Shown here in pieces: positions 3,624 through 30,320 of a DNA stretch of 64,000 nucleotides (the first letter of the stretch is position 1; every line of letters begins with the position of its first letter). A model generated the notes under the pieces. That model was not told the origin of the DNA, did no database searches, and worked only from the letters and a program-made list of their open reading frames with translations. A program made the position numbers and the translations under genes. Origin of the DNA: Lytechinus pictus (taxonomy: Eukaryota); NCBI RefSeq assembly GCF_037042905.1, contig NC_087250.1:17424001-17488000 (forward strand). Reading direction: 5' to 3'.

Positions 3624-3815
3624 TTTTTACACTCATATCAGGGGAGAATTACATGAAAAGTTTAGTCAGTGATTTTCACAGACGACTTTGCTCTCAGCCA
3701 ATCAAAAGAAAGGATTTCCAGTAGCTTATAACAATCGTCAGTAGAAATGACTTGACCATTTGTTCCATGGAATTTTCCTCAGATCTTGGCCTTGAGAAAG
3801 ATGATCATTGGCATG

Positions 3816-4903: not shown

Positions 4904-4952
4904 CTGAAAATTAGACTCAAGTTAAGGATATCACAAACATGAATACTCTCAT

Positions 4953-5222
4953 TGATAATAATAATAGCTGGATTTTTAAAGCGCTTTTTGCCTGAGGATA
5001 CAAAGCGCTGCTATTATTACCCGAGCTTTAGCTCGAGCTACCATCACCAGCGCTCAGTGCATGCAAGCAATTACTCCTGCCGGGTACCCATTCACCTCAC
5101 CAGGGTCGAGTGCAGTGTGGATAAATTTCTTGCTGAAGGAAAACACGCCATGGCTAGGATTTGAACCCACGACCCTCTGTTTCAAAGGCGAGAGTCAGAA
5201 CCACTAGACCAGGACGACGCAC
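4953..5222 (-). mobile_element. tRNA-derived SINE (second family)
   Basis: TGGTCTAGTGG A box, GGTTCAAATCC B box, AATGGGTACC core and an (ATT)n tail. Confidence 0.8.
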
Positions 5223-5291
5223 CCACCCATATTAATGTTAGATTGCATATGTTTATAAGAGCACTTGGGAGGGTCCGTATACATGTAATTC

Positions 5292-5565
5292 TGGGCCCCG
5301 TCTTACAAAGATATGATTGATCCGATCAACCTCAGCTATATATGGAAATCCACCATTGTCATAATTTCTACTCCAGGAAATTTGCACCATGTCCTTTTGT
5401 AAATACAGAGAAGCACACTGAATTTCAAGAAAACGAACGTATACATGTACATCATATCTGAAAAATATTACTTTGAACAAACATTACAGTTTAGATGGTG
5501 ATGTTGCTGGCTTTCCATAATTGTGGTTGATAGAATCGATCGCAACTCTTTGTAAGAGGGGGCCC
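5292..5565. mobile_element. Harbinger-like MITE family (copies also at about 14681-14950, 30597-31370 split, and 43206-43477)
   Basis: TIRs GGGCCCCGTCTTACAAAG / CTTTGTAAGA.GGGGCCC flanked by CWG. Confidence 0.7.
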
Positions 5566-6493
5566 AGGGACCTACATTGTGTTACATTTTATCACAATTT
5601 CAGATGTTTGTACATGCTCATTTGACCAACATATTGCTTTGGAAATTAATTTTTTCTTAGATTAATTCCTGGTATAATTTTGATATTTGATAAGTAACTG
5701 ATACAATGCCATATTTTGTTTATAATCATTACCATGATCTGCTTTTGTATTCATGTACGCTGGATTTTCAGTATTCATACTCTTTTTAAAAATAAATAGA
5801 TCCCATACTACTACAACTATTATTCAAGGGAAGTCTACCAAAAATAAACTTGCTTTGAAGATAAAAAAAAATTGACCAAACATTATGAATAAAATTTGAT
5901 AATCAGATGTAAAATAAGAGTGTGGTGACATTTCGAAGCATGGCTGATTCTCACAAATTACATGTAGATGTAGTTGATGGTGAAATTATCTTTGATGTTT
6001 GTCTTCACTAGCGAAGACAAACACAACTTCAAGAATTCCTGTGGATTCGAAGATGGCTAAATAAACCAATCTTCGCCCGGTAAAGACTGTTGCAGTGCGG
6101 GCAAGCAAGAGACGGCAGAGGGGCAGGAAAAATACAAAATGAAATGCAAATTGAAATGCTATGCAAATGACAGAGATGAGAATATCACACTTTCTTTATT
6201 TCTCTTGTATTTTATCAATATGTCAATTTTTGCAGATTTCACAATATGGGTCCAGAATCGTACTACAACAATGACAATACCACATGTTTCGGGTCATATC
6301 AAACTCTGTTTCACATTTAATACAATGAGGAAACAATTTGAATATTCCATATTTCATATAATGAAATACAATATAGAGGGCTCTCTGATGTTCGATTATA
6401 TCCAAATCAGTTTTTCAGGGGGACAGTTTTTCCCTTTATAGCGCATTTTCTAGTATTTTGCTCATATGCATCAACATTTGTCCTGAACATAAA

Positions 6494-6922
6494 TAAGATC
6501 ATTGTCGCTAGAGGGTATTCATTTGTCTCGCAATCTACTATGGTCAACAAGGAAATTCGTGATCACTCTCGCAAAAGTGTTCACTGGCTTTCTAGGAAAT
6601 TCGTGATCACTCTCGCAAAAAGTGTTCACTAGCTTACAAGTTCACGAGCTTTCGAGTGCCGCTGCAACTCTTTATCAAGTGACGTATTCTTTTTCGTCAC
6701 TTGATAAAGAGTTGCAGCGGCACTCGAAAGCTCGTGAACTTGTAAGCTAGTGAACACTTTTTGCGAGAGTGATCACGAATTTCCTAGAAAGCCAGTGAAC
6801 ACTTTTGCGAGAGTGATCACGAATTTCCTTGTTGACCATAGTAGATTGCGAGACAAATGAATACCCTCTAGCGATTATTTCAATCCGCAATAATGAACCT
6901 ATTTAGTATTAAGATCATTGTC
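6494..6922. mobile_element. Penelope-like element remnant: inverted pseudo-LTR pair with a hammerhead motif
   Basis: Perfect 180-bp inverted arms (6505-6684 and 6695-6874), a 10-nt loop, a 35-nt one-sided tail, and a 13-bp direct repeat TAAGATCATTGTC at 6494 and 6910. Confidence 0.7.
6697..6736 (+). ncRNA. Minimal type-I hammerhead ribozyme-like motif (U3-A8 variant); mirrored on the minus strand at 6643-6682
   Basis: TCAC-TTGATAA-A-GAG(T)TGC/agcg/GCACTC-GAAA-GCTC-GTGA gives stem I, core, stem II, GAAA and a palindromic AGCT in place of stem III. Confidence 0.6.
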
Positions 6923-6975
6923 TCTTACATACTTTATTCATAGCATACCAATGCCATATTGTGAACCAAACCTAA

Positions 6976-7258
6976 AGGCCCGGTGCCACTGCACTTACGG
7001 ATGCATAGAGGATGTAAACCAGAAAAGAATCTTGCCGTCCGTAAGGTTCCAAAGCGTCATGTATCCATTGTGTACTCTTTGTATGTGTTTCATATGCTCT
7101 ATATCCATCGAGTATTTGTCCACTGTGATTTCATTGTTCGCCCATTTTGTCCATTGGCTGGAGCGGATGAAAACGGAAAGAGCCACCCCGAAATTTTGCT
7201 TGTCTGCTGTATCCGTTATGAATACGCTTTGTATCTGTCGGCCAGTGGGACCAGGCCT
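6976..7258. mobile_element. PIF/Harbinger-like MITE
   Basis: TIRs AGGCCCGGTGCCACTG / CAGTGGGACCAGGCCT flanked by TAA and TTA. Confidence 0.6.
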
Positions 7259-7293
7259 TTAGCTAGTTATACAATACATATTTAAAAGGATAC

Positions 7294-7353
7294 CCTATGA
7301 TAAAATTCCTGATGTCCTCTATTGTGTGGCTGTGGTTGAATTTTCCTGTCAAC
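7294..7353 (-). CDS. NSFL1C: NSFL1C/p47 exon 9 (UBX)
   Basis: Reads LTGKFNHSHTIEDIRNFIIG; followed by a U12-type donor GTATCCTTTT. Confidence 0.95.
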
Positions 7354-8159
7354 CTGAGGAAGGAAAAACAAAGAAATATTATCAGTTACATAGGGAAATA
7401 AAATAAAGAAATCAACCAATAGGGTAGAGGAAAAGCAGTTTAATTGAAATCTAAAATTAAAGTATTTTATACAAAATCAAGTTAAATTTAAAGGCAAAAA
7501 TAAAAAAATTAAATTCATGACAAATATGGTTCACATAATACAATGATGACTATACTAAAAAAAAATAAGTAACAACACATAAATTGTGGATAGATGATTT
7601 CTAGTTAAATTGACCGGACCAGTTTCTCTGACACATGTTTTGAGTACTAGAACACATCTACTGTCCATTCCCACATTATGGACCATATGGAAGTGTACAG
7701 CATTCTGCTAGAGTCACCAAGGGGGGCAGATCAAATAGTTCTAATTTGGGAATATGTGTTTTCATGCAGTTCATAGCTCTTGGGAGTTTCAGGAACAGTA
7801 GATGTCTGTGATTTACACAGACTAATTTGCTGTTAGCCAATCAGATGGAAGGATTCCCGGTAGCTTGTAACATCTGTCTGTGAAAATCACTGACAAAAAC
7901 TCCATGAAACATTCGCCCAATGGGTGAGTTCAAGTCCGGTGTTGGCCTTGGTGTTGAAATTTGGATTGATTCCCCTAGCTCCAAAATCTATTCTGAGTTT
8001 GTAAAACTGATCCAGATCACATTATTGACATCTCAACAACTAGTGAGTGACTTTTCAGGACCATCTTCATTTTCTGTTTGGCCTTATAATAGTGTAAAAA
8101 TTGACCTAACACCAACACCAAAAGGTCAACACTTAAATTGAAATCACCCAATGTCTTAC

Positions 8160-8309
8160 CTGGATCCATCGGCTAATCTCAGCTGCAGTGTTGTTGTAGG
8201 TTGGCTGGGATCTACATCTATTGATGCAGCTGGGGATGCTGAAGATGATTCTGATGGAGTCCCTGAGGGCTGCGTACTTGCACCTCCTGTGGTCATGGTG
8301 GGTGTTGGA
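8160..8309 (-). CDS. NSFL1C: NSFL1C/p47 exon 8 (linker and UBX start)
   Basis: Reads PTPTMTT...IDVDPSQPTTTLQLRLADGSR, the UBX N-terminus; GTAAGA donor. Confidence 0.95.
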
Positions 8310-8367
8310 CTGATAGAGAAAAGCAATATTACATTACTTATATGTATAGCAGTTACTTTGAGGGTTA

Positions 8368-8604
8368 CACTGCAAATACGTCGGTGCTAATTTAACACCA
8401 GTCCGGTATCTATATCGGTCCACACCAGAGAAGCGTTGAAACAACACCATTTAAGAATCAAACCAATATTGGTTACACTAATTGGTGTTGCTTAAATGCC
8501 AAATTGGTGTTAGCCTAATGCCAAACCGGTGTTGTTTCAACACCTCTCTAGTGTTGACCGATATAGATACCAGGCTGGTGTTAAATTAACACCGGTGCAT
8601 TGCA
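8368..8604. mobile_element. CACTA/EnSpm-like MITE (relative at about 58961-59194)
   Basis: CACTGCAAA start and inverted TTTAACACCAG / CTGGTGTTAAA arms. Confidence 0.6.
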
Positions 8605-8636
8605 GGTTATGGTTCAATATATATAGTTCTTGTAAG

Positions 8637-9080
8637 TATGTAACCTTGCAAACACACTTACCAGCCTATCCTGACACAATGTCTAGTGAAAGCTTGGTAA
8701 TTTCCTTAATTTGAGAGCAACAAAGACCTAAAACTCTGTAAACCTTTGAAACACCCTAGCCAACCTAACCTGACACGATTTCTAGTGAAAAACCTATAAC
8801 TCTTGTAAACCTTTGAAACACCCTTGCCAACCTTACCTAAAACAATATCTAGTAAAAGCTTCGTAATTTCCTTGATTTGAGAGCAATAAAGACCTTAAAC
8901 TCTTCCAAATATGTAACCTTCAGAAGAACTCCTCATCAACCAAACCTGACACCATGTCCAGTGAAAGCTTGACCCTTTCCTTGATTTGAGAGCAAAAAAG
9001 ACCTAAATCTCTTTTAAATATGTAACCTTGAAAAACACCCTCACCTGCCCAACATGACACCACGTCCAGTGAAAGCCTTG
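8637..9080. repeat. Tandem repeat of about 110 bp derived from the NSFL1C exon 7/intron boundary
   Basis: The motif tgacac..tgtcyagtgaaagc recurs at about 8672, 8771, 8840, 8948 and 9055; the last copy is the real exon end. Confidence 0.85.
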
Positions 9081-9182
9081 ACTGTCTTCTTGGGTTGAGT
9101 GAACTCCTCGTTCCGATGATCTTCTAAATCCAAACTGACCTCTCCTCCTTTGCCAAGTTGAAGTAACTCATTTGGAATCTCT
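9045..9182 (-). CDS. NSFL1C: NSFL1C/p47 exon 7 (SEP end and SHP box)
   Basis: Reads EIPNELLQLGKGGEVSLDLEDHRNEEFTQPKKTVKAFTGRGVMLG; GTGAGG donor. Confidence 0.96.
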
Positions 9183-9975
9183 CTGAGAAAAAAGGTAAAA
9201 GATAGGCTCATATTTGTTGCAAAGGTGTGCTCTTAAGCTAAAACCATATATGTTCTCTTTGAGAGATAAAGGAGTAAGATATGATATCTGTGTACAACAA
9301 GAGTGTCACTAAGGCAAGCACATAATACACCCACCCGTAACACGGAAAATTGAGATATTGGTCAAGCAAGAAAAGTGGAAGGTGGCAACTTCACCTTTGA
9401 CCTTCTGACTTCAAAATCGATAGAATTCCTGAGATCTATGCAAGTAGAATACACACCAAATAAAATGAGTCTAGGTTAAGTTAAACTAAAGTTATCACGT
9501 TTTACTGCAGAAGGGTAAGATGAAAACATGTCACTGTGACCTTGACCTTTGGCCTTTTGACATAAAAATCGATAGGCTTCCTGGGATCCATGCTAGTATC
9601 ATACACACCACAAAGTTGTAATACTAGACTTCTCACTTTGAAAGAACAGGGCGAATTTGATGAGTTCAATAGAAAGTAACTACAGACTTTTGTAACTTGT
9701 GAAAATTTATCTTTCTATAACCAGAATGGTATTATTTAATGAAATGCTTCTCTCTTTCCTCTGTTCTCATAAATATTGATTTCCCACAGGGTTAAGGAAT
9801 GACATAGGTTTATTACTTTTCAGTTTCTATACCAATAAGAAATGAGTACTGGACACACTGAACATATACTATCCCTAAATAAGTTACGTATTGCTATTTT
9901 GGATTTAAAAGTCACAAAAGACAAAATAAGGAAATTTCTCCAAATTACGACGACTGGAATGAGGGAAATTTTTAC

Positions 9976-10085
9976 CCTTTCATGATAGTTTTCAGGAAGG
10001 CATCGTTCTCTGGTACTTCATATCTTCTGAGATCTCCATCATTTATGCTGAACCCCGTCTTCCACATTTTAAGTACAACGTGAGT
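9976..10085 (-). CDS. NSFL1C: NSFL1C/p47 exon 6 (SEP domain)
   Basis: Reads THVVLKMWKTGFSINDGDLRRYEVPENDAFLKTIMKG, the start of the SEP domain; canonical splice sites. Confidence 0.96.
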
Positions 10086-14003: not shown

Positions 14004-14022
14004 TTAAAAAATACATACTGAC

Positions 14023-14191
14023 CTCTCGTGGTGTGGCACCGGGCATCGTACCGGAGGTACCAGGTACCGGTACTACCGGTTCCTCTGCGGATTCCCCTAG
14101 TCTGTAGCCGGCACCTTTGAAGGCACGTGAGGCGTTTCTTGGCTGGGACGCCGAAGGGCCTCCGCCCGCTGCCACTTCCTCAGCACCGTGA
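14023..14191 (-). CDS. NSFL1C: NSFL1C/p47 exon 5
   Basis: Reads HGAEEV...AFKGAGYRLGES...TPRE (FxGxGYRLG motif); ttcAG acceptor and GTCAGT donor. Confidence 0.95.
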
Positions 14192-14962
14192 CTGAAATCA
14201 AATAATTATCGTAATGAGATTATAAGGTTTGCGTGGTGGAAATAATAAATGCGGAGGAGGTTTACAGTACAACGTGTGGTGAGTCCTAGGAGAACTGCGA
14301 AAAGTGGAAAGAGGTGGAAAATGGAGAGGCAAAAAAGTGGAAGGTTGGAAGTTAGAGTATTCTTTTCTGACATGAGTGCAATCCTTAGAAGGACTGTAAA
14401 CCAGAAATTTGAGAGGCTTGAGTAGTTGGAAAGATTAAAGGCTGGGTTGAGTCGGCGAGTGAAGTTGCAGAACAGGAGGAAAAACTCAACTTTTGGGGAG
14501 GTTGATTGTATTCTTTCGTTTGATTGAAGTCTCCCGAGGACGGACAGTCAACATGCCCAATACATGTATACTGATCTTTCTACTGCTCTACAATTCACTT
14601 GCCAGAGTAAAAACAACAAAAGATTTTCTGTTTTGATTTGAGGGTAATGGAAAATCACTAACCCTGATAAAGGTCAAACAGGGCCCTGTCTTACAAAGAG
14701 TTGCGATTGATCCGATCACTATGGATGGCCAGCAACGTCAACATCTACATAATGCATGTTTGTTCTCAATATTTTCTAACTACATGTATGATGTATATTG
14801 CATTCATTGCTTTCTTGAAAACTCACTGTGCTTCTCTTTGTTTACAAAGGACATCGGGCAAATTTCCTGTAGAAGAAATTATGACTCTGATGGATTTCCA
14901 TAGAGTTACGGTTGATTGGATCAGTCATAACTCTTTGTAAGACGGGGCCCAGAAATACTTAC

Positions 14963-15043
14963 TCTTTAGCATGTTTGAAGATGTTTTTGACCAGACTGTC
15001 CGCTTCCACCTTCTTCTTCTTTGGACCTACAACCTGCTGACCA
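14963..15043 (-). CDS. NSFL1C: NSFL1C/p47 exon 4
   Basis: Reads GQQVVGPKKKKVEADSLVKNIFKHAK (conserved SGQQxVGP); ctgcAG acceptor and GTAAGT donor. Confidence 0.95.
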
Positions 15044-15303
15044 CTGCAGAGAATGGAATGAATTATTTAGAACAAGATGCATAGAGAAACATGATCTTGA
15101 GCTCAATGCACAAAGAGCTTTTAAAACTGCAAGTGACAAAATAATAACAATAATACTAATACTTACTATATGCATATTATACCTCAATTGGTATCAAAGC
15201 CAGGCTTTCGGTACTATGCTTTCGTAGTGGAAGGACGCATTGGAGCGGAGCTCTGACCACCCATTGCCTAATACATACTAATTGATTTCAGCACCAACTA
15301 GCT

Positions 15304-16164
15304 ATGCTATCACATACTCAACGCCCTAACACCCGGCAGGCCTCGGCCAAGCACACGGCCAGTGGCCCATTGGAAAAAGATACCTCCCCTACAACTGCCA
15401 TGCCATCGAATGCCGATCTTCAACGGGATATTTCAAATTTCTCGAACAAGACTTTAGAAAAGCTTGACAGCATTACTAGAGAAATTCAATCTATGAATCG
15501 ACGTTTGAACGATGTAGAAGCTACCGTGGAATTGAACTCCGCTAAAATCATCGAGGTCGAGAATGCTATTCCTATCAAAATCGCCCCTCTACTAGATGAA
15601 ATTTCGAGTTTGAAGGAAAAGCTATTGCTGGCCGAAATCTACAACCGAAAATCAAACTTATTGTTTTATGGTGTTGAAGAAGTAGACCAGGAAAACATCT
15701 ACAACACTCTACATAAGATTTTTACTTTTCTTGGCATCGACGAAGAGAAGGCCAATGAGATTCAACTCGTAAACGCCCACAGACTACCCCGTCGCAACCC
15801 GAATGGAACCCCAGGTACCCGTCCATCAGGCCGACCAGCCCCCGCCCCGATCATCGCAAAGTTTGTACGGATGCCCGACCGGGACCTGATCCTCTCCACC
15901 TTCGAGAACCTGAAGCGACCTACTCCACAGCCCGCCCCGCAGCCGCAAGGATCAGCCTCAGCTATGCTGCCACGCCCCCCTCGCATAACGGTGAGGACGG
16001 ACCTACCACCCACCTTGAAGGCTCGCCGCGGTTACCTCGCCGAGGTTGCCTACAAGCTACGTAAAGAGAAAAACCTGTCAACTAGAATTAAACTACTAGG
16101 AGTGAAAATCGTCCTCCAGTGGAAAGAAAAAGGCACAGCAACGTGGAAACCCTACGAAGAGTAA
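15304..16164 (+). CDS. LINE ORF1p (coiled coil, RRM and C-terminal domain; L1-ORF1-like)
   Basis: 286 aa; heptad coiled coil followed by NRKSNLLFYGVEE, AHRL, PIIAKF and DLPP motifs typical of RRM-type ORF1 proteins. Confidence 0.88.
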   Translation: MLSHTQRPNTRQASAKHTASGPLEKDTSPTTAMPSNADLQRDISNFSNKTLEKLDSITREIQSMNRRLNDVEATVELNSAKIIEVENAIPIKIAPLLDEISSLKEKLLLAEIYNRKSNLLFYGVEEVDQENIYNTLHKIFTFLGIDEEKANEIQLVNAHRLPRRNPNGTPGTRPSGRPAPAPIIAKFVRMPDRDLILSTFENLKRPTPQPAPQPQGSASAMLPRPPRITVRTDLPPTLKARRGYLAEVAYKLRKEKNLSTRIKLLGVKIVLQWKEKGTATWKPYEE

Positions 16165-17299
16165 TACTTGGTCGTTCGTTACATCATGGTTATGTGATAT
16201 TATCAATCTTCAAGAGGAAATACAAAATTTCAATGTTAACGAGAAATACGTATTTTGAGATTACCTACAAGATGGAATGGAGAAAACCTGTCAACTATTT
16301 TTTATCTACAAAACATCAAAGTCGTACAGAGAAAGGACAAAGGGACATCAACATGTGATCCTGCGAAAATACAGCTACCCCGTCATCATTTTGAGGTGAT
16401 GTCTACTTTTATTTTGAATTATACTTACCATGAATTAATACTGAATCACTATGCTCTCATAAAAGGATAAATTAACCATATTTTCATTTTTGCCTCCTGT
16501 TACATTTTATCCGAATGTCGTTAACATAATGCGAGAATGTAAATTTCATATGAGCTTCGACACTAAGTCTGCTTTAGTATACATTATTTTGATTCAGGCT
16601 AACTTTTGTCCAACCAATTATCGTACATTTTGCTCACGAGCCTATACTGTTGATATCGGGGCAGATCAGGCTTGTTTTCTCTCTTTCTTTATTACAATTT
16701 TTTGTTTAACCAAGTATAAATGAGGTGGTTTATATGGTAAAAGTGAAGTTATCTGTTTTCTCAGAATTGTTATTGATGCTACCTGTTAATAATAAAATCA
16801 AAATTTGCTAGCAGCCTTTATGACTTTTCCCCCATATTCATTTAAGAATGGAACCTTATACCAAATCAAGTTCGTTTGAAGCCTGGACATTTATACATTG
16901 AATAAATGGATATACTTATTGTTATTGCTGTGTTTTAAATTCTGTGATACCCTGATCCAGGGAAGCAATCCATTAATTATAATCGATCAAGGAAAATCAA
17001 AACAAACCAGAGAAACGAATGCAAATTACAGCATAGATAATTCAAAATATACTGAATGATTTTGATTTTATTTTTCTCTTTCGGAATGTACTTAACAACT
17101 ACACCTTCCAGACTGTGCAATGGTGATTGCCGATCATAATTATCAATATTAAGATAAAGATTGCTTAACATCGGTTGCAATAGGTGTTGATCTTCATTTT
17201 GCTAAAACATGTTTTATGTAAATTTTACCTAAAAAGAAAAAGAAGAAACTGTCTTCATAATATGTCTTGTATTTTATATGACTAAAGTTTTCAAAACTA

Positions 17300-19960
17300 T
17301 TATCATACACAATTCTCTTGTTTAACCAGTTGGTCTTTTCCGTAGATCAATCTTTGAATTAAAAACTTTTTTTTTTTGTATATGAAACCTGATGAAGGAA
17401 TTACTCCAATCTCCTATTTTACATATTTTTCCCGCCACTTTTCCATTTAATTATACTGCAAACCCATCATTTTGTGTGTCACATCATAATCTCTTTAACC
17501 AATTAAGAAGTGTCCCAATTGGATTACGAATTCATTATTTGACTTGTCAAATATGTTAAACGGTTCGTCAGACAAGATTACTACTGAATTGACTTATTGT
17601 TACACCGAAAAGTGTTAAGCTTCTTGTACACACATTGTAGTATTTAATTCGCATGGCAGCATCCACATAAGGAGTGGCTTTTTATGCACCAATGGTCATT
17701 TCCCGCCTTCCACGCTGTCCATTGATATTATTGGTCGAGCGAGTATGAGAGTACATTCCAAACCAAACTGCATTGACCTATGTTAATTCACCCCCCCCTC
17801 TCTCTCTCCTATTCAATGGCATGTTATTATTATTTCGTATACAGCAGCGATCTGTTTACAAATATCTGCATAACTATACAAATCGACTTTTCTTAACACG
17901 CCTATTCTACATATCATAATGCTTCGACGCTATTTTGTATGTTTTGTAAAAAAAAAAATCAACATCCAATTTTATATTTCACATACAGACTGGAATTGGT
18001 CACGAACATCCTCTCTGTCGATCCAAAAAGAGAGGGAAGAAAGAGAGAGCGGGAGGGAGAGAATATGGTTCACCTAAATCATGTCATTTATAGTTGATTA
18101 TGCTTATACATAATGTATAGAATGTATATTAATTCCAGTGGCGTTCTCTCAGGTACATGGAGAAACCATTATTTTTTTTGTCTCGTACTTGACATTTAAT
18201 AAATTTACTTGCATATTATGCAGTTGTTTTTCCCGCCACTTTTCAGTTTCATTCCTATACGCTTACCTCTTTATGTGGCAACGGCTTAATCCAATTAAGT
18301 ACAGTCCTAAATTCCGACACAATTTCATTCTTTGACTTTCCAAAATATTTATACATTTTGTTAAAAGATTATTTACTGGGCTTCTCATGTGTTCACCTTA
18401 TACTTATAAAATATTTTAAACGGTTCGTCAACAAAGATTACTATTGAATTGACATATTGTTACACTGTTAAAGATTTTGCTTATTGTACACGCATTGTTG
18501 GAGTTAAATTTGCATGCCACATCCACAGGTTTCACCCAATAAGGCGTGGCCCTTTGGCGTGGCCTTTATGCACCGATGGTCATTTCCCGCCTTTCACGTT
18601 GTTCATTAATATTATTGGTCGATTGAGCATGAGAGAACATTATGCACTGACCATAATAAGCAATCTGCTTTGGCCTATGCAACCCCCCCCCCCTCCCTCT
18701 CTCTCAGCCTATTTAATGACATCTCATTACGTAATTAATACATTATTTGGTAAAGAAGCAATAATCTGCACTTAGTTCAAAATCAGTATCCCTTTATCTT
18801 TTATCAACAGACCTGAATTGATTAATGCAAATGTTGTTTAACGATCATTCTTTGAGCCAATTGTAAAGGGAGGGAGAGAGAGAGGGGGTCCACCCTCTCA
18901 CACTATCATGACTATAGAGTGTATATTGATGTCAGTGACATTCTCTTCAGGTACATGAAGTAACCATTATATTTAATCTCGTCCTTGACATGTATTTAAA
19001 TTACTTCTCTATAGAGATTTTTTCCCGCCAATTTTATGATTCATTCCAAAAGGCAATACCCTTTGTTTGGCAACGGCTTAATCTTATTCAAATAAGCAGA
19101 GTCCTAACTTAATAATACGATTCATTCCTTAACTTTTCCAAATATTTTAAACAACTTGTCAAGTAAGAAAGCGATTATATAGCTTCTTTTATTCACTTCA
19201 TTCGTTTGCCCATATCCACAGGTCTCGCCAAACAGGGCGTGGATTTTATGCACCACTGGTCATTTCCCGCCTATAACATTGTTCATGAATTTTATTGGTC
19301 GATGAATAGCATGAGTGAACCAAACGCTCCTGCTCTGCACCAATCAGTATTACCACCCCCCTCCCCTTCTCTCTCTCTCTCTCCACAGCGGCAAGTCATG
19401 ACATACAATATATATTTCTTTTTATAAAGCAGCAACAACCTGTATACAAAATTCTATCTATAGTTTTTGTACATTCACGTGTATAAGAATGCATACTTCA
19501 ACGTAGATATCCGGCTGTTTTGTTCATAAAATTTACTTTTGGACGGTCATTGATCAAAACAACAGCCTTTAAATCGTTTGTAAAAAGAAGAATAGGGAAG
19601 AGAGAGAGAGGGGGGGGGACACAATTTGCCTTTAAGTAAATCATTCCTGATTGTGTTGATTATGCTTGGTTATGCTTAATACACAAGAATGTATACTAGT
19701 TTTTGGTCTTGTCTTTTCAGCCACATGATGGATCCATTATATTGTGTTGGTCTTGTATTTTGAAATCACTAGTGTTTTTTCCCGCCACTTTTTCAATCAA
19801 TCACTATGCCATATACGCCCATTCTTTTGGCCCCAACTGCTTAATCTCTTTGTACAACTTAGAAAAGGCCCTAATTAGTTCCCATCTTATTCTTTGACTA
19901 CTCAAATATTTTAATCGGTTTGTCAGAAAAGAGATCCATTACTATATTATTAAACTGTGA
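17300..19960 (+). repeat. Diverged tandem modules of about 760-800 bp in the LINE inter-ORF spacer
   Basis: The anchor TTTTCCCGCCA recurs at about 17427, 18228, 19020 and 19777; GGTCATTTCCCGCCT recurs at about 17694, 18578 and 19258; each unit has a C/CT tract followed by a GA tract. Confidence 0.85.
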
Positions 19961-20486
19961 ATAGTGGGCTTGTAGTGCATTCTTGAACTCTCTATATACT
20001 TCCAAATTAATTCAAAGCTCATTTCCAGTCTCCCTCTTTTATTTATTCCTCACGGCAACAGATTTCTAGGAGAAAAAAAAATACTCCCTTTGATGTAGAC
20101 CATTCTCGGTATTTTCCAGACTGAAAAGTGTGTAATGCGGTTTCAATGTATTGATTCAATGTAGATTATGTAAGAATCTTTTTGTTACATGCTTAGAAAT
20201 CTATAGTATTGACTCAATCTTGTTGATTCATTGTTCTTTTTTGTAAATATTGTCTTCTTCCAATCCCCTCGTAGTAAACTCTAAGTTTTTATTTGCTGAA
20301 ATTGTTTTATCCATTGTATTTTTAGGGTGGTCGAGCTCTGCTCTGCTGCCCAGCCATCATTGACCAAGATGGGTCTTACTTTTTTTGCATTCATATATTA
20401 TGTTTTTATTGTTGATACAGTAGCACCACTTTCACACATGAATACACCTGTACACACACACCCACGCACATGCACCACTTGCACAA

Positions 20487-23400
20487 TTGCAGTTGACCTC
20501 TCTCCAAACCTCCGGTACTTTACATTTTTACGTCCCCCTGTTTGAGTCACATACTTTTACTCCAGATATTTTCATTGAGAACCCGCAAGATAGCAAATAT
20601 TACACTCCCCAAGAATTCAACAACGAATTTAATTTTACTCCAGATAATCTATCCCTTTTACATGCAAACATAAGAAGTCTAAATAGCAACTTTGAATATT
20701 TAGTTAACCTCTTACACTCATTAAATAACTTTCAGTTTTCAGTCATCGGTTTAAGCGAAACATGGCTACATGAAAATTCTCCTGACATGTTTAATATACC
20801 TAATTATAAATTAATAAGGGCGGACCGTAAGGGAAGAAGAGGAGGAGGAGTTGCTTTTTACATTTCACAAAATCTCAAATTTAAGATTCGATCTGATGTT
20901 AAATTATTGCATGCAGAGTCATTGTTTATAGAGATTGAAAATTCTAATTCCAAAAATATCATCATAGGATTAATTTATAGACCCCCTGATACAAATATCG
21001 ATCGTTTTCACGATGAACTAGAATATTTTCTTCATGAAATAGGGAATGAAAACAAACATTTTTTTTTGCTCGGTGATTTTAATATTAACTTCTTGCCCTC
21101 ATCTGACATTAATAATTCATCCAATTTCATGAAATTGATATATTCGTTTGGCTTTATTTCTATCATTAATAAACCCACAAGGATTAACTTGAATTCATCA
21201 ACTCAGATTGATAACATATTTTCGAATGTTCATAATAACAAAGCCACAGGAGGGATTTTATGTTCTGAAGTTTCGGACCACCTGCCTATTTTCTTAACTT
21301 GTGAATGTAAATTTTCTTTCCCCAAATCAAACAAAGAATATACTTATCGTAAAGAATCTAAACAAAATATAGAATTACTGAAGCAAGACCTAGTTTTGGA
21401 AGAATGGGATGATGTTTATAATGAAGTAAATCCCAATATTGCATACAATAACTTCAATAATACATTAAAACATTATTATGAAAAGAATATCCCTATAGGT
21501 AAAGTAAAAAACCAACGTAACAAACCCAAAAATCCTTGGATAACTAAAGGTTTACTGAAGTCCATACAGACACGTAATCGCCTATATAAATATCACTTAC
21601 GCAATCCAACTGATGATTCTTTAAAAGAATATAAAATATATCGTAATAAACTAACAAAATTAATTCGAATATCCCGAAAATTGCACTTTGCTAATAAAAT
21701 TAACGATGCCAATGGAAATACAAATACGACTTGGAAAATTATCAAAGAAGTGTTGGGTACAAAAACACACCCCCCACCTAATGATAAAATCACTCTCAAT
21801 GGATCTGAAATACTTGATCCCACTAATTATGCAAACTCATTTAATTCTTTCTTTACCAATATTGGGCCCGAGCTTGCAAACAAAATTAATAGTCCCAACG
21901 CACATTTTACAGATTACCTCTCAGATCCAAATCAAGAATCTCTTTTTTTAGCCCCAACAAACCCCTCCGAAATAATCACTATTGTTCGTTCCCTTCATAA
22001 TTCTAGATCCTCTGGTTGCGATGGCATTAACATGTCTCTTCTTAAGCAAATAATTCACCCTCTTGCCAGCCCTTTGACTCACATATTTAATAACTCCCTA
22101 TCTCAAGGTGTTTTTCCAGACTTATTCAAAATAGCAAAAGTAAATCCGATTTTTAAAAAAGACAACCCTCACGAAATAAGTAATTACCGTCCCATTTCCT
22201 TACTTCCAACAATATCTAAAATTCTAGAAAAAATAGTTTACACAAGACTTTATAAATTCATAAACAAATATAACATTCTAAATTGTAATCAATATGGTTT
22301 TAGAAAAAAATATTCAACAGACTTAGCATTACTTCAAATTTATGACAAAATAACAAATGCCATAGCGAACAAAGAACACGTAATTGGCATTTTTTGCGAT
22401 CTTAGTAAAGCGTTTGACACCCTCAACCATGAAATTTTACTATCCAAACTCAACCATTATGGAATACGAGGTCAATGTCTCTCATTTTTTAAAGACTACT
22501 TAAATAATCGAAGGCAATATGTCAATTTTAACAGTTACGACTCTGATTCTCTTTTAGTTCGATGTGGTGTCCCTCAAGGTTCCATTTTAGGCCCACTTTT
22601 ATTTTTACTCTACATTAACGACATTATTACAACCTCCTCTATTTTATCCTTCGTTTTATTTGCCGACGACACAAATATATTTTATTCTCATAGAGACCTT
22701 AATTCATTAACCAATATCGTAAATCGTGAAATTGATAAAGTATCAAACTGGTTCAAAGCCAATAAACTATCCCTTAATACAAAAAAGACACATTTTATGT
22801 ATTTCAGACACCATTCCCATAACATTAACACACCGATTGACATTAACATTGACGGCACCCCCCTAGAACAGAAAAAACAATCTAAATTTTTAGGTGTAAT
22901 TATGGACGAATCTTTGACTTGGAATCAACACATACACCATGTTACGATGTCCGTTTCTAAAAGTATTGGGATAATTTCCAAGTTAAAATTCACTCTTCCT
23001 GACAAAACTTTATTCTTGTTATACAATTCATTAGTCCTCCCTTATATAACATATTGTAATATCGTCTGGGCAAATTGTGGTTCTTTCAAACTAAACTCTG
23101 TCTTTAAACTACAAAAAAGAGCAATCCGTATGTGCACACGGTCACATTACTTGGCTCATTCTGACCCATTGTTTCATAAACTTAAAACCTTAAAAATCTT
23201 TGATATCAATACGATCCAAGTAGCCATCTTTATGTTCAAATATTTTAATAATCAACTTCCTCCATCCTTTAATGATATGTTTAGGTTTAACAGGTCTGTT
23301 CATTCCTACCCAACCCGCACATCAGGAAACCTTCATCTCACCAACCCTAAATTATTAATAACTCACAAATCAATTCGACATTATGGTCCTGATATTTGGA

Positions 23401-23504
23401 ACAATTTTTCAAACAACGTTAAGTCATGTTCAACAATATACTCACTTAAAGCCACTATTAAAAGAAAAATCATCGAATCATATGCATCCCCCTCTTCAAG
23501 TTAA
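20487..23504 (+). CDS. LINE ORF2p: apurinic endonuclease plus reverse transcriptase
   Basis: Uninterrupted frame of about 1005 codons. APE motifs: HANIRSL, LSETWL, YRPP, GDFN, IDNIF, SDHLPI. RT motifs: YRPISLL, DLSKAFDT, GVPQGSILGP, FADD. The true start codon is uncertain. Confidence 0.97.
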   Translation: MQLTSLQTSGTLHFYVPLFESHTFTPDIFIENPQDSKYYTPQEFNNEFNFTPDNLSLLHANIRSLNSNFEYLVNLLHSLNNFQFSVIGLSETWLHENSPDMFNIPNYKLIRADRKGRRGGGVAFYISQNLKFKIRSDVKLLHAESLFIEIENSNSKNIIIGLIYRPPDTNIDRFHDELEYFLHEIGNENKHFFLLGDFNINFLPSSDINNSSNFMKLIYSFGFISIINKPTRINLNSSTQIDNIFSNVHNNKATGGILCSEVSDHLPIFLTCECKFSFPKSNKEYTYRKESKQNIELLKQDLVLEEWDDVYNEVNPNIAYNNFNNTLKHYYEKNIPIGKVKNQRNKPKNPWITKGLLKSIQTRNRLYKYHLRNPTDDSLKEYKIYRNKLTKLIRISRKLHFANKINDANGNTNTTWKIIKEVLGTKTHPPPNDKITLNGSEILDPTNYANSFNSFFTNIGPELANKINSPNAHFTDYLSDPNQESLFLAPTNPSEIITIVRSLHNSRSSGCDGINMSLLKQIIHPLASPLTHIFNNSLSQGVFPDLFKIAKVNPIFKKDNPHEISNYRPISLLPTISKILEKIVYTRLYKFINKYNILNCNQYGFRKKYSTDLALLQIYDKITNAIANKEHVIGIFCDLSKAFDTLNHEILLSKLNHYGIRGQCLSFFKDYLNNRRQYVNFNSYDSDSLLVRCGVPQGSILGPLLFLLYINDIITTSSILSFVLFADDTNIFYSHRDLNSLTNIVNREIDKVSNWFKANKLSLNTKKTHFMYFRHHSHNINTPIDINIDGTPLEQKKQSKFLGVIMDESLTWNQHIHHVTMSVSKSIGIISKLKFTLPDKTLFLLYNSLVLPYITYCNIVWANCGSFKLNSVFKLQKRAIRMCTRSHYLAHSDPLFHKLKTLKIFDINTIQVAIFMFKYFNNQLPPSFNDMFRFNRSVHSYPTRTSGNLHLTNPKLLITHKSIRHYGPDIWNNFSNNVKSCSTIYSLKATIKRKIIESYASPSSS

Positions 23505-23820
23505 TTATTCAACTGCCCTTTACTTCACCCGCACCTGCACCTGCATTGCACCCACTTGATCAATGAAGAAAGACATTTATGTACCATTTACGAGGCCGCC
23601 ATCATTTTCAAGCTTAACCGCTCACGATGGCGGTCTCCTGCATTCGTTTAAACTGTTATTTTCTTTTCATTGAATATTGCTTATTGTTAATATTTATTTT
23701 TCATTGCTTTACTATGACTATTGCTTAATTGTTTTGTAAAACTTGATTGTACCACCCAGATGTTATGTTGCATATTTGTAGCCTGAGTGCAGAAATAAAA
23801 TTGAATCAATCAAAATCAAT

Positions 23821-24048
23821 ATTAATACCTCGGCAGTACTTGGCTAAACCGCCAAATACATGTAGGCACTAAAGCAATCAAGTAATTAGTCCTAGCAGGG
23901 TACCCATTTGCCATTTACCTCACCTGAGTCAAGTGCAGCACAATGTGGATCAATTTATTGCTGAAGGAAATTACGCCATGGAAGGGATTCAAACCTACAA
24001 CCCTCTGTTTCAAAGTCCAGAGACTAATCCACTGGGCCACAATGCTCC
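23821..24048 (-). mobile_element. SINE body, relative of 4953-5222; its tail appears to lie at about 15140-15200
   Basis: Shares gggtacccatt, ttgctgaaggaaa, cgccatgg and ccctctgtttcaaag with the 4953 copy. Confidence 0.75.
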
Positions 24049-24757
24049 AAGATCAAACAGACCTTTGGTTTTCGCAGTTCATATAGTGCACAATGCAGAG
24101 TGTGAGGTAAAGAGACAAGATTCACTATGTGCCGTGGCTAACTCTACCGAAGCAGACAGAGAGTTTGCCATCTAGTCTTCATTGTAGACATGGTATAATA
24201 AGCCTGTTCACGGTTGTAAACTGCGCACGAGCAAAAAAAGGTCATTTGAGATAAACCATGAAGGTGGCTTTCAAATTCACTGACATAGGCATTTGTGATT
24301 TGATGATCATTCATGTATTCCTTTCAAAATATATATTCATTTTATCACATCCAAGCTGAAGAGTAATAAATAGAGCCTTCATAATCACTGGTATTTGACA
24401 GTAGCCTAAACAATAGTAAAATGTGCCAAAGGCAGACAATAAAACAGATTTCCAAACTTTATCCCTGATGTACTATTCTCGTCACCTGGTCTATACAATG
24501 CCTTTTGTTCTTAGAATTTGAATACTCTACCGGTAAAGCTTACGCAACATCTAGATTTGAAAATGATAGTGCTTATCCTAATGAAAAATCACAAAGGTCA
24601 TTTGAGAAAAGTTGATCATGAGCTAACCGTGAACTGGCTTATTGGTTTAAGTGTCAAATATGAGTCTGTAATTGCAGACTAGGTCCTTAGTCCTTACAGC
24701 TCTGATTTTTAAAATTCAATGTTAACCATTGCCTCCGACAAAAACAAGCTATTTTAC

Positions 24758-25821: not shown

Positions 25822-27309
25822 CTGTAAGAGGGCCACAAGGGGGAAGGTTACATGAAGAATCTTCTAAGTGATTTTCACTGGCAAATGTGCTCTAAACCAA
25901 TCAGATTAAAGTATTTCAGTAGCTTATAACAATTGTACATGTAATTCATTCTAAAAAAAGGGGCACCAAGGAAATTATGTTATTTCCTAAGGGCTCCTAG
26001 GTAATTTTCAAAAGGACATTGTTAACAATTGTTTAATACATGTATCTATGAAAAGATAGACTACACATGCTTTAAATATGCAAAAACAAAACTAAAATTT
26101 GAAGGTAAGAAGGAATTATCAATCTTAAAACTAAAAATTAAGCATGAATTATACATTCTAGTTTTTCTTTTAAAAGGCCTGAAAACCAACTAATGAAGTA
26201 GTTAGTGAATGAATAAATTTCATATCAGGCATTCATATTTTGACATTACTTTACAAATGAGGTGAATTGAGGGTTATTGAAGTCATTAGAGTCAATTCGT
26301 ATTACTCTTATTACCCGTAATTGTTGTCTAAGCCCCATGGGGGAAGTGAAACAGATGCCATGAGTGCCCTCATAAGCAAGGACAATCTCAACTTATCAAG
26401 ACATACTAAGTAATTTGCTTGATTTATGAGGATAGATCATTGATTTCTTGGACAATTCTCATTTTCAGACCAGCACCTCTACATCTACTGAAGATATACA
26501 ATGATAACTTCACAACATTCAATGCTTGAAATGGTTTTTTTTTCTTTTTAAATAGTTTTCAGGAAATATCAAAATTGACAGTCAGAGGTTTCACCGCCAT
26601 CTCGACTATTGCTTAAAAAAGGACAAGCCCACCCCAACAAAGTGTCATATCAAGTCCCTAAATCACATTTCAAGGTCAACGTCAATGAATGTGCCCACCA
26701 CTTTTTTGAATATCGCCATGCCCATCGGCATCGGGAACGGCTATATTTTGGCTTCGATCTCGACGTCGTTTGAACTCTCATTCTCAATCTCAGTCAGATA
26801 ACGCGAACATGCGGCATATCTTTTGATCACTAAATTCAGTCCATATCACAATTACGGCGAAGCGATTACTAAGTTAGACTAACTTAGTAAGGTCAGAATT
26901 CAAAAAAATAAAGATCAGAGCCAAAAAAAAGGCAAAACAATTCTCGATCGCAAAATTTTAAAAGCAAAGTCAAAGGCAAGCAGAGCATTAATTAATTTGA
27001 CCTTATCATGATCAGTATGAGTATGACTTGACCGAGTCAGAGAGACTTTCACTTGCCATGATCTGTGAACAATTTTTTTTTCTGGTGGGGAGCCAAAATT
27101 TGCAGGAAGTCGGCCAGTGCAGTGCGGTGCGAAAGTCTGCATTAGCCTTAGGCTTAGCCTTAGCGCCGCTGCATTATCGCCCCCATGGCCCATGTCGACT
27201 GCTGCCGAGACGGCTCGCGTCGGCTGGCAGAGCTGCAGAGCGGACGTGGACTGTCAACGCAAGGCTAGGATGATATAGAAATGCTTCAAGTTAACAATTT
27301 ACACTTTAC

Positions 27310-27426
27310 CTCCAACTTCCATCCCGATGATTCGAGAAAGAACGAGGCTCTATCTCTATCTGCTCCAGTTACGCCAATAAACTGAGTCAGAACTTCATCT
27401 TTCTCTGCTGCACTGGTGGCTGCCAT
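27310..27426 (-). CDS. NSFL1C: NSFL1C/p47 exon 1 (UBA-like domain start)
   Basis: ATG at 27426 reads [39 protein letters not shown], the recognisable p47 UBA N-terminus; ends at a GTAAAG donor, phase 0. Confidence 0.95.
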
Positions 27427-29246
27427 TTTGATGATTTATCTCTTTTTCTTGTATGCTGCCCTCACAGTCACACGAGAGAAAACAGGTACCGGTACGGTAC
27501 CGAGAAAACAGCTCGAATAAAAAACTCCGAAAATTTCATCAAAAGCTTATAACAAATAACAAATTTATCGAATTTTGAAATTTAGTCATGTCCTCTGAAA
27601 AATGAGGCTGGTAATGTCATTTTTCCCTTTTTTCAATTATAAGATCTCCCTCATGAAATTAATTATTTGTCTTTCACATAAAATCAATAGCCAATCAAGT
27701 CCCTATCATTTTTGGAGGACAAAAAGTTAACAAATATAATTTCATTTCATAAGACACAAAAGAATAGGCCTAAGTGATTTCATCAGCCTGGTCATTATTC
27801 GCGAAGACTTAAATAGAACTGTTTCACCGACAAAACTTTAAATATAACATAAATTTGCTATTCATTGTGATTGTTTTTTTTTTCTAGCTCTCTTCATCTG
27901 ATTTTCAAATCATATTACTCTCAGCCGGTAGAGTTCCCTTTTAACTGTAAACAAAATGAGCAAAGATATTTTTTTTTACAATTTAAACAAAGATTATGGA
28001 TGGCTATGACTTTAGGTAGGATACTAAATGATGTGAACTATTTTTTTATAAATATACCCGATACTCTCAAAATATAAGTCATGTTGCAGGTAATCTTTGT
28101 TCCTACAAAGCAAAACTGAAGTTGCCAACTCATTTTAGATATCGCACTTGCACTCACATTTCTTTCTTTCTTTTTCTTTCTTTCTCTCTCTCTCTCCCCC
28201 CCCCCCTCACTTGACCCCCCTCTCTTTCATCTTTCTCTCACACCCAGGCATCCTTTTTAACCCTTTCTGACCCTTTCTGCACCCCCATGCACCCTCTCTC
28301 TCTCTCCCCCTCTCTTTCTTCTTTTTCTCTTTCTCCTCCCCTCTCCCTCTCTCCCATGCATGTTCACTTCCTCACAAATACAGATGTACATCACAATAGT
28401 GTAAACATTGTTTTTACAAAGTCAAGAGAAATAATAATCTTATTTTCATTTCACAAATCATCACTGTGTTTTCACCACAAAAAGTATGTATGCAAAACCT
28501 TACAGCAAATAGAAAAGTGTTAGTTTCTTTTTTAAACTATCATTCATCAGAGAGGACTGGGACCCTGTTTCACAAGAGTATAATTCTGTAACAAATTTTC
28601 TCTCGCCCAATCAAACTGCACTATTTGAACAGTAAAATGTATTGTGATACTGGGTTTACGAAGCAGGATCCAGCTCAATCACAAATATTCATCAATATAA
28701 AATCTTAAAAATAAATAGAAAACAAATGCATATTGATAGAATTTTTAAATTAGGGACTGAAGGGTGGTCTTAATTCCTTCTTTTAAATGGTAGTCAAGTA
28801 TTCACTAATATCACAAAACCCTAAAAGCTCGACATATAAATGCTGGTAAGTGGTAATCATTTCATTTACCAATGCAATGATAGTTCACCTTGGATAAACA
28901 ATGGATTAGAAGAGTTTTCTTAAGCCAGGTCTAAGTATACAGCTTCTCAATTAGCGACTTATGAATCACGTGGCACATCAGGCCTTACAAAGTGGCCCAT
29001 GCAAGCCGATATTAAAACTATAAATAGATAAAATGATTCATTTTGTCATAAACATAAACTCAGTTTGGGCCAATTAATACGGCTCATGTTCAAAGCTTTG
29101 GGGGAAGGGGTGCAAAAAAATATAGTTTTCCTGTGATTTAAAACCAAGTTTCCAATTCTAACAACAGAACCTAGAATGGTGATTTTGATTTTCAATCCCG
29201 GACAAAAATACTATCTGCCTAAAATGAATATAAAATGATTTATTTC

Positions 29247-30320
29247 ACCTGCACCTGCATTGCACCCACTTGATCAATGAAGAAAGAAATTTATGTACCA
29301 TTTTTACGAGGCCGCCATCATTTTCAAGCTTAACCGCTCACGATGGCGGTCTCCTGCATTCGTTTAACCCTATCTTAACTGGGCTATTTCAGACCAGTAT
29401 ATACTGGGGGGGGGGGGGGTCAATTTGACCCCCCCTCAGATCTCGGTCGCTGATCGCGCGATCGCCGCGAAAATTTGCACGCGCATAGAGCCGGATGTAA
29501 ACTACAAGACTGTATGGTAGAATTTTTAAAAAATTCATTCTTTATGTTTTTAATTAATTAATTATGCAAATAATCCTATGAAATTTGCCCTAAATTTTGT
29601 TTTTTGTGTATGTTTTTGCCTTTAACTCAATTTATATAGCTAGTAGAATGCTAATTTTTGGTTGGAGTACCAATTATTACATATCTAACAAATATCTACA
29701 AAACAATTGCAAAAATATAATTAATTTCTTATGTATTTAATTGTTTTTTAAATTCTTATGTAGATCTCTGTTTTTTCAAACCTTTGTTTTTTATTGTTTT
29801 TTCCAATGAACTTTGTCGGGGACCCTTCTGCGATCATAGATAGCATAAATAAATCCATTTAAACCAACAAAAGTAAAAATAATCCTACATCTATGATTTT
29901 TGGTTGAAAAACACAATTTGCATTGACTTTGTACACGGAATCACGTTTTTGAGCAATTTTGGGTCTGACATGCACTTACAAAATGTTGCATAATTTCAGA
30001 ACCGCGTCAGAATTTTGGTCTCAAAAGATGCGCAAGACTTCATAGTAAAAAGGCAGTGAGCGGCGCAATCAAAAAACTTTGCGCGACGGCGTAGTGATGA
30101 AATTTGTCAAGGTGGGGGTCAAATTGACCCCCCCCCCCAGTTTAATAATGGTTAAACTGTTATTTTCTTTTAATTGAATATTGCTTCTTGTTGATATACA
30201 TTTTTCATTGCTTTATTATGACAATTGCTTCATTGTTTTGTAAAACTTAAATGTATCACCTAGATGTTATGTTGCATATTTATCTTGAATGCAGAAATAA
30301 AATAAAATCAATCAATCAAT
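29247..30320 (+). mobile_element. 5'-truncated copy of the same LINE 3'UTR, interrupted by a piggyBac-type MITE
   Basis: 29247-29367 plus 30152-30320 are nearly identical to 23532-23820, including the hairpin and the AATC tail. Confidence 0.9.
29368..30151. mobile_element. piggyBac-like non-autonomous element
   Basis: TTAA on both sides, a CCC start, and subterminal GGGGTCAAWTTGACCCC palindromes; a related inverted copy lies at about 42066-42828. Confidence 0.8.

Follow-up and report, generated by a model that had tools for sequence, protein, structure and literature searches.

A CR1-group LINE of Lytechinus pictus with a possible E2F-responsive monomer array between its two open reading frames

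The 64,000-nt stretch of Lytechinus pictus contig NC_087250.1 analyzed here (the window) contains a long interspersed nuclear element (LINE) that, by its sequence, is a member of the CR1 group and combines an L1-type first open reading frame (ORF1) with an ORF2 that encodes an endonuclease (APE) domain and a reverse transcriptase (RT) domain. Stop to start, the two frames lie 4,373 nt apart (16165-20537), in agreement with the 4.3 kb given by the initial annotation. This spacer is most likely a native trait of the family, and its motifs, judged by their pattern of conservation, are under selection and are predicted E2F/DP sites. We tentatively favor, at somewhat less than an even chance, a reading in which this array of E2F/DP-responsive monomers drives a separate ORF2 RNA from a late start in the spacer.

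The spacer holds real tandem units. Successive copies of TTTTCCCGCCA are spaced by 801, 792 and 757 bp, as reported before, and a profile built from units 1-3 located these at 17330-18111, 18128-18916 and 18925-19675 together with a partial unit at 19717-19976 (Table 1). No further forward-strand match to the profile under E 0.1 was found in the 64-kb window, and the count is ~3.3 (three full units, one partial) where ~3.5 had been proposed. The units are ~800 bp long and share 58-69% pairwise identity; neither Tandem Repeats Finder nor an ungapped repeat finder listed them, and gapped alignment was needed. The word TTTCCCGCC occurs seven times in the window, the number counted earlier, always in the spacer and on the + strand (17428, 17699, 18229, 18583, 19021, 19263 and 19778), compared with a mean of 0.012 and a maximum of 1 in 2000 dinucleotide shuffles of the spacer.

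Across units 1-3, 49% of the 611 ungapped columns are invariant, and four blocks of 16, 12, 11 and 10 nt are fully kept (TGGTCATTTCCCGCCT, TTTTTCCCGCCA, TTATTGGTCGA and TTTATGCACC); four runs of at least 10 were reached in none of 20,000 permutations, in which columns are assumed independent. CpG was kept in all three units at 4 of the 28 aligned positions, 3 of these inside the invariant blocks. Unit 4, which was not used in choosing the blocks, keeps block A at 12/12 columns compared with 88/119 of the other invariant columns (~0.03). The proposed conservation of motifs amid divergent flanks was thus borne out. So was their E2F type, as the conserved word equals the chromatin immunoprecipitation motif clusters of E2F1/3/4/5/6-RB1-TFDP-LIN9 and of E2F7/8 (bioRxiv 2025.11.09.687492), site A being closest to the E2F7/8 cluster.

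Two other words named as conserved held up only in part. ATTGG and CCAAT show no enrichment over the spacer as a whole (5 against 5.7 ± 2.2 and 12 against 8.0 ± 2.7 in shuffles), but one ATTGG per full unit lies in an invariant block, so that the spacer is best described as an E2F array in which every full unit has a single fixed inverted CCAAT. GGCGTGG is found twice in unit 2 and once in unit 3, but unit 1 has GGAGTGG. Each full unit carries a GC/GT box, an E2F site and an inverted CCAAT 61-69 nt upstream of a pyrimidine tract, which we take to be the layout of a TATA-less promoter. With its tandem units and conserved predicted factor-binding motifs, the spacer has the makeup of a monomer-type array. 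The 500 nt next to ORF2 are suggestive of a decayed fifth unit, though the tests disagree: the gap-permissive score of 111 with unit 1 lies above 372/372 controls, those with units 2 and 3 are reached by 29/372 and 91/372 controls, nhmmer gives no match, and z is 0.4 with stricter gaps.

Both ORFs are open from stop to stop (15286-16164 and 20442-23504), as had been claimed. A Pfam search with the single ORF1 protein gave no match; a profile of 59 sequences matches 2ykp/2yko (E 7e-6), and the structure model (mean predicted local distance difference test, pLDDT, 87.7) has human L1 ORF1p as all of its top 11 Foldseek matches (best E 1.3e-7). The model has the coiled coil, RRM and C-terminal domain (CTD) of a type II (Tnp22) ORF1 like that of human L1; matches to haemagglutinin and other coiled-coil proteins were set aside as non-specific. 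In three sea urchin gene models (P0416, P0417 and P0418), ORF1-family sequence is fused to coding sequence of the host (SRCR, NXPE3). The first in-frame ATG of ORF2 stands at 20787, and none precedes the endonuclease domain. In the alignment with P0083, the closest relative (88% identical), the CTG at 20538 falls on Met1, and a Met is predicted near this position in almost every full-length close relative. The word "intact" therefore fits the open frames of this LINE, but not an AUG start of ORF2.

ORF1, spacer and ORF2 were inserted as one piece, because in organism B, which carries a second species label, a DNA contig (run X11) connects 15195 directly to 23819. A secondary insertion of the spacer between adjacent ORFs, the refutation foreseen at the outset, is made unlikely by this empty site, which lacks the whole LINE, and by the presence of spacer sequence in the second species. 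The left flank is not a significant continuation of the right-flank repeat (z 1.3), and the empty site rests on the organism B contig. Four sequencing runs were compared with 14960-24060; organism B matches at 88% likeness, and the depth sums are not copy numbers. Summed depth in organism B is 650-750 over ORF1, 0-150 over 16176-17999, 160-1000 over 18000-20431, 1,180-9,270 over ORF2 and 52 for the empty site. Since the units differ from one another by more than 30%, the 88% matches are to corresponding units; we infer that the array would predate the split of the two species. At the ORF2 start, X11 has a depth spike (5,176 over 20432-20735, against 951 before and 1,546 after), possibly due to an AC-rich stretch.

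Run X1 of organism A, whose kind is not on record, was used for presence only. It has a 4,430-nt contig over 18138-22568 with 12 differences, the 3' junction, and 5'-spacer pieces ~2% divergent from the window (7/386 and 13/558); no single record of another copy spans the spacer. No joint between ORF1 and ORF2 is among the 15 joints listed out of 24. The between-species differences seen (40/459 substitution rows and 12/62 indel rows, all runs) are too few for judging motif conservation.

A comparison of 120 ORF1-family with 275 ORF2-family proteins gave five coincidences of source contigs identical in size. Two are above 8 kb (29,508 and 17,179; 0.085 expected) and one is 6,508 (0.11 expected); those at 2,300 (0.78 expected) and 4,140 (0.375 expected) were not counted, 2,300 being impossible as one element. 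The 6,508 pair, if real, caps the spacer of that relative at ~2.5 kb; the 4,140 pair may come from a relative with a short spacer, which would then measure less than 645 nt. Within the wider family, the spacer is probably not of constant length.

Table 1 Features of the LINE and its right flank (window coordinates).
Feature	Position (strand)	Description	Evidence
Whole LINE insertion	15196-23818 (+)	8,623 bp; ATCA(A) at both junctions	Organism B DNA contig joining 15195 to 23819; junction letters
5' untranslated region (UTR)	15196-15303 (+)	Short, ~108 nt	15211-15284 matches upstream region of ORF1 relative L001 (69% over 74 nt, E 5e-5)
ORF1	15304-16164 (+)	286 amino acids, ATG 15304; coiled coil + RRM + CTD (L1 ORF1p / Tnp22 type)	
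Unique 5' spacer part	16165-17329 (+)	No unit-profile match; low organism B depth	z -1.2 to 0.0 against units 1-3
Unit 1	17330-18127 (+)	Site A 17426-17437; GGAGTGG, TTTATGCACC; site B 17693-17708; TTATTGGTCGA 17728; CT tract 17791; GA tract 18025	
Unit 2	18128-18924 (+)	Site A 18227-18238; GGCGTGG twice, TTTATGCACC; site B 18577-18592; TTATTGGTCGA 18612; CT tract 18683; GA tract 18865	
Unit 3	18925-19716 (+)	Site A 19019-19030; GGCGTGG, TTTATGCACC; site B 19257-19272; TTATTGGTCGA 19292; CT tract 19356; GA tract 19594	
Partial unit 4	19717-19976 (+)	Site A 19776-19787 only	nhmmer E 2.4e-24, profile built without unit 4
Possible degenerate fifth unit adjoining ORF2	19965-20454 (+)	TGGTCGAG (20328) and CATTGACC (20358) retained; both E2F sites missing	
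CT-tract-to-GA-tract fold-back segments	17786-18064, 18680-18895, 19350-19624 (+)	Boundaries chosen post hoc	z -3.0, -3.8, -6.8
Pyrimidine-tract CAG/(GT or CC)ACATG sites	18150, 18948, 19718 (range 18150-19727, +)	Unit starts; acceptor-like, then ATG; putative function	
Upstream ORF	20369-20545 (+)	58 codons, second ATG 20438; TGA just past ORF2 start position	
ORF2	20538-23504 (+)	988 codons; APE + RT, no zf-RVT; CTG first codon	Pfam RVT_1 E 7.5e-35, Exo_endo_phos E 2.7e-11
3' UTR stem-loop	23592-23637 (+)	12-bp stem	z -3.7; both arms identical in second copy 29308-29353
AATAAA + (AATC)n-type tail	23793-23818 (+)		Second copy has same kind of tail, ~30300-30321
Flanking high-copy repeat, like a short interspersed nuclear element (SINE)	23820-24039 (.)	LINE target, outside element	z 31 against copy 5012-5211; very high depth in all runs

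Long spacers recur among LINEs, and the E2F array is what is particular here. Among the ORF2 relatives (80 of 166 loci kept, plus L025), ten CR1-group loci show both ORFs. The spacer is 5.2-5.8 kb in L058, L061, L064 and L070, 1.2 kb in L025, and short or absent in L034, L074, L087, L089 and L094; with more than 5 kb in four of the ten, very long gaps are not confined to the element studied here. These four loci, animal DNA in two symbiont genome bins with near-identical titles and probably from one animal host, are like the window in their Tnp22-type ORF1, repeat-bearing spacer and CR1-group ORF2. Unlike it, they lie on another branch (~30% ORF2 identity), encode a 2A-like motif, and fill their spacers with tandem and nested (host) repeats that have neither sequence nor E2F sites in common with the window. 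Against all 108 relative loci, the spacer had no match better than E 0.16. The four are CR1 elements of 10-12 kb, with GD(I/V)HPxPGP as the 2A-like motif and a 3' end shared by L058, L061 and L064; three of them have ACTTCCGG and/or AAAATGG at their start, and an E2F-like T-run word comes next.

The ORF1 relatives comprise 27 loci, all but L001 at 26-35% identity, the named ones from Diadema and Strongylocentrotus. Those with an ORF2 are mostly of L1/Tx1 type (L003, L005 and L006 typed by domain spacing or partial ORF2 only), with spacers of 0.26 kb (one element, six loci), ~1.0 kb (L002, L003 and L005), 1.4 kb (L006, with a tandem pair) and 2.9 kb (L007); L009 has a diverged 420-bp tandem and no ORF2 within 3.7 kb. 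In an unrooted FastTree of ORF1, which gives no direction of transfer, the ORF1 of the window groups with L003-L006 (95), and the CR1-group ORF1s fall outside on long branches. In the ORF2 FastTree (55 rows, midpoint root, without Repbase references), L002, L007 and L017 split off at 100 and the ORF2 of the window lies inside a 36-row clade, apart from L1/Tx1-type and 2A-bearing CR1 elements. Assignment to the L1/Tx1 clade (ORF2 of ~1,270 amino acids, zf-RVT, L1-clade RT) was rejected, the ORF2 of the window having 988 codons and 22-26% identity to L1-type ORF2s; zf-RVT is present in the L1-type relatives L002 and L017 and not in the window ORF2. At the 5' ends of two L1-type relatives (L007 80-110, L009 83-110), ACTTCCGG stands near the canonical E2F word GCGCGAAA, with a YY1-like AAAATGGCGG following in L009; E2F-like words near the 5' ends of relatives were found at 3/26 loci, too few to weigh. 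In L025 (470-1777), the ORF1 that precedes a CR1-group ORF2 is a fusion of an L1-type RRM part with a NADAR domain (Pfam E 1e-28), and the ORF1s of L023, L024, L026 and L027 are similar in length to it. Scans of viral contigs gave 0/15 candidates for ORF1 and one trivial locus for ORF2.

The 3' stem-loop, the short-repeat tail and the 5'-truncated copies are traits of the CR1 group, and organism B depth climbs toward the 3' end. A second, 5'-truncated copy of the 3' end lies at 29246-29367 (97.5%) and 30152-30328 (87%). Its two parts are separated by ~785 bp of inserted sequence, to which 42527-42793 is related in inverted orientation. Sliding 150-nt folds fell below z -2 in 3/113 windows, the strong fold being in the 3' UTR only, and ARAGORN made 0 predictions.

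The spacer presents translation with 84 ATGs and three AATAAA. With so many ATGs, ORF2 is out of reach of ordinary reinitiation; from the three CT tracts, 49, 30 and 18 ATGs are left before ORF2, from 20417 two, and from 20473 none. The routes to ORF2 that are known depend on short spacers or on stop and start codons that lie near each other (PMC3708506, PMC5972666), and a 445-bp spacer reduces L1 mobility 26-40-fold (PMC4072516).

In the reading that we favor, the LINE is tentatively a young copy of a Crack/Daphne-like CR1-group family with an L1-type ORF1. The label is a presumption from sequence style and from the Tnp22 ORF1 of Daphne. The spacer would travel with the element, its 3' 3 kb being an old tandem promoter-monomer array selected for E2F/DP sites. 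A ribosome coming from ORF1 would be kept from ORF2 by the 4.4 kb and 84 ATGs in between; each monomer, with its two E2F sites, a GC/GT box and a single inverted CCAAT ~60 nt before the pyrimidine tract, would act as promoter or enhancer, and a second, 3'-coterminal RNA would begin late in the spacer, at ~20380-20530, with 0-3 ATGs remaining. This RNA would yield ORF2p in proliferating cells, and ORF2p would locate the full-length RNA via the shared 3' stem-loop; it could still copy that RNA if the LINE is of the stringent type that binds its own 3' stem-loop. The origin of the layout may be an ORF1-less CR1-group element with a monomer promoter that acquired an L1/Tx1-type 5' module (short UTR, ORF1 and ~1.1 kb of spacer) upstream, leaving the old promoter inside; in support, the nearest ORF1 relatives with context sit in L1/Tx1-type elements, three of them with ~1.0-kb spacers. 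The full two-promoter version, in which a 5' start gives ORF1 and the template RNA while an E2F-gated array gives ORF2p RNA in cycling cells only, with action in trans via the 3' stem-loop, is more doubtful. If it is true, the layout would be an intermediate in the gain and loss of ORF1 in the CR1 group, and the multi-kilobase spacers in several LINE lineages of marine invertebrates would be the sign of a general route to ORF2 by way of a subgenomic RNA.

Several observations weigh against the late-start reading. In the raw RNA runs X21 and X22 (~6% of each read, tissue not given), mean depth is below 0.3 in all spacer bins but one (0.99), with 12 and 24 reads on the host exon; next to no reads fall on ORF1 or the spacer, and ORF2 depth goes up to 2, probably from diverged copies because few of the reads are over 95% alike. 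X1 summed depth is flat at ~18-20 from 18000 through ORF2, so that there is no dominant shorter RNA, if X1 is RNA. No record in any run spans a complete element of another copy. Starts at the CT tracts would leave 18-49 upstream ATGs and so need splicing, for which no joint is listed, and E2F sites are missing from the region next to ORF2. Repressors, too, bind E2F sites. All seven motif sites lie on one strand, as would be expected of an RNA motif no less than of a DNA motif that was duplicated, and four of the ten CR1-group two-ORF loci manage spacers over 5 kb without an E2F array.

In an alternative that we regard as unlikely, yet the best of the rivals, the array would be an intragenic enhancer or silencer (DREAM/Rb, E2F7/8) for the 5' start of the element. 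There would be a single RNA, and ribosomes would get to ORF2 either through internal entry or through stop-restart at the upstream ORF (20369-20545). The 108-nt 5' UTR holds no E2F, YY1-like or ETS-like words, so regulation may lie elsewhere, and the likeness of site A to the E2F7/8 cluster speaks for this reading as well. The upstream ORF stops just past the ORF2 start, the layout of stop-restart systems (PMC5972666), but 4 kb into the RNA it would still require ribosome loading. Internal ribosome entry sites have been predicted in long L1 spacers (PMC5381506), but Rfam gave 0 matches at E≤1 over 14900-24200, and 20300-20545 folds no better than shuffles (z +0.8).

It is rather improbable that the units act in the RNA, with fold-back stems and splice signals turning the full-length RNA into the ORF2 message and UUUCCCGCC serving as an RNA-binding site. 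The CT-to-GA segments do fold (Table 1) and are self-complementary by profile, the unit profile matching their reverse strand (E 1.6e-5 and 1e-3), but their boundaries are post hoc and the stem interiors are not conserved. Acceptor-like CAG sites stand at three unit starts, and a donor-like ACG/GTGAGG at 15990 in ORF1 marks the place where the Diadema gene model P0418 exits ORF1, at conserved ITVRT codons; the shared strand of the seven motifs also suits an action in RNA. However, X21, X22 and X1 have no internal joint among the joints listed, relatives begin ORF2 at their own Met, no fused ORF1-ORF2 protein occurs among 3 matches from 8,000 longer candidates (a weak test), and none of 73 spacer windows pairs outstandingly well with the 3' UTR (best z -3.0).

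We give little weight to a one-off chimera, in which an ORF1 half and an array-ORF2 half from two families were joined in this copy by template switch, the array being the 5' promoter of an ORF1-less CR1-group element. ORF1-less elements with 5' subunit arrays are described (PMC13343379), the ORF1 relatives with context are of L1/Tx1 type, and organism B has a depth of just 0-150 over 16176-17999, which no listed record of it spans. Against it, the contig pairs of 29,508, 17,179 and 6,508 point to an old pairing of ORF1 and ORF2, the ~2%-different 5'-spacer pieces in X1 imply a second copy or haplotype with the 5' spacer, and organism B depth is alike on ORF1 and the 3' spacer. Equally improbable is a spacer that is tolerated ballast, duplicated from a captured host promoter or nested repeat and with a motif conservation that is a relic of earlier function or of inter-unit conversion: tandem and nested host repeats crowd the spacers of distant CR1 elements, divergence between species is fast in the 5' spacer and unit 1, and no expression was seen in the two partly read RNA runs, but the conservation is measured among units, i.e., after duplication, conversion would not spare just 10-16 nt blocks, long spacers are costly (PMC4072516), and the spacer holds no high-copy independent repeat (organism B depth ≤ ~1000 against 772,000 in the flanking repeat bin).

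Among known systems, the element is most readily compared with CR1-group L2/Daphne/Crack LINEs with a Tnp22 (type IIA) ORF1, with which it shares APE and RT without zf-RVT, an L1-type ORF1, a 3' stem-loop and a microsatellite tail without poly(A); unlike them, it has a 4.37-kb spacer with a motif-conserved array (PMC4120745, PMC13343379). It is known that L2/CR1 lineages carry Tnp22 ORF1s and that ORF1s are swapped (PMC4120745); unlike the CR1-group ORF1s compared here, that of the window is nearer to ORF1s borne by L1/Tx1 elements. ORF1-less vertebrate CR1-group elements also have tandem subunits upstream of ORF2, 1-5 of 100-500 bp, whereas the units seen here measure ~800 bp, contain E2F sites and stand downstream of an ORF1 that is open (PMC13343379). 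Mouse and rat L1 have promoter-like tandem monomers of 200 and 650 bp, but these stand 5' of ORF1 and drive the full-length RNA (PMC5381506). Vertebrate L1s with long intergenic regions likewise keep a non-coding spacer despite its cost, but theirs are 257-1,032 bp at most, without large units, and belong to the L1 clade (PMC5381506, PMC4072516). The Drosophila elements HeT-A, TART and TAHRE are non-LTR elements with TTCCCGC sites, driven by E2F1-Dp, and a TART RNA start has been mapped upstream of ORF2; unlike in the window, the sites lie in UTRs, the inter-ORF spacer is short, and the elements are telomere-specific and Jockey-type (PMC11698117, PMC1636488). E2F control of a LINE and a separate ORF2 start, put forward as an unusual architecture, thus both have Drosophila precedents. 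The literature searched, which leaves aside Repbase Reports and most subscription papers, yielded no CR1-group element whose spacer is several kb long or that has an E2F array between its ORFs, and PMC5203782 and PMC7140322 contributed nothing on the spacer question; the supplements of PMC13343379 and PMC4120745 may hold such elements.

Translation of ORF2 in two-ORF LINEs is still debated from elements with spacers under ~1 kb (PMC3708506, PMC5381506, PMC5972666), and a self-copying element with 4.4 kb and 84 ATGs between its ORFs forces another route. With seven mutable predicted E2F sites in a tractable embryo system, it is a compact test case. If the array drives ORF2, retrotransposition would be tied to the cell cycle at the level of the enzyme, and the frequent loss and swap of ORF1 in CR1-group elements would have a mechanism.

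The LINE lies antisense inside an intron of an NSFL1C/p47-like gene, with minus-strand exons at 9975-10085, 14020-14205, 14964-15043 and ~27289-27435. The 28-amino-acid exon has only two PDB matches, both p47 (E 0.26), and the further exons are presumed NSFL1C/p47-like. The GC-rich 14020-14200 is host exon, outside the LINE. Elsewhere in the window, a 633-codon minus-strand frame with several C2H2 zinc fingers (43499-45400) is a host gene exon. A perfect 180-bp inverted repeat with a 10-nt loop (6505-6874; 100% complementary) is a very young element or an assembly artefact. Direct repeats of ~610 bp, 99% alike, lie 2,074 bp apart at 38431-39043 and 40505-41116, and a small inverted-repeat element at 14679-14952 has copies at 5285-5565, 30591-31372 and 43204-43479.

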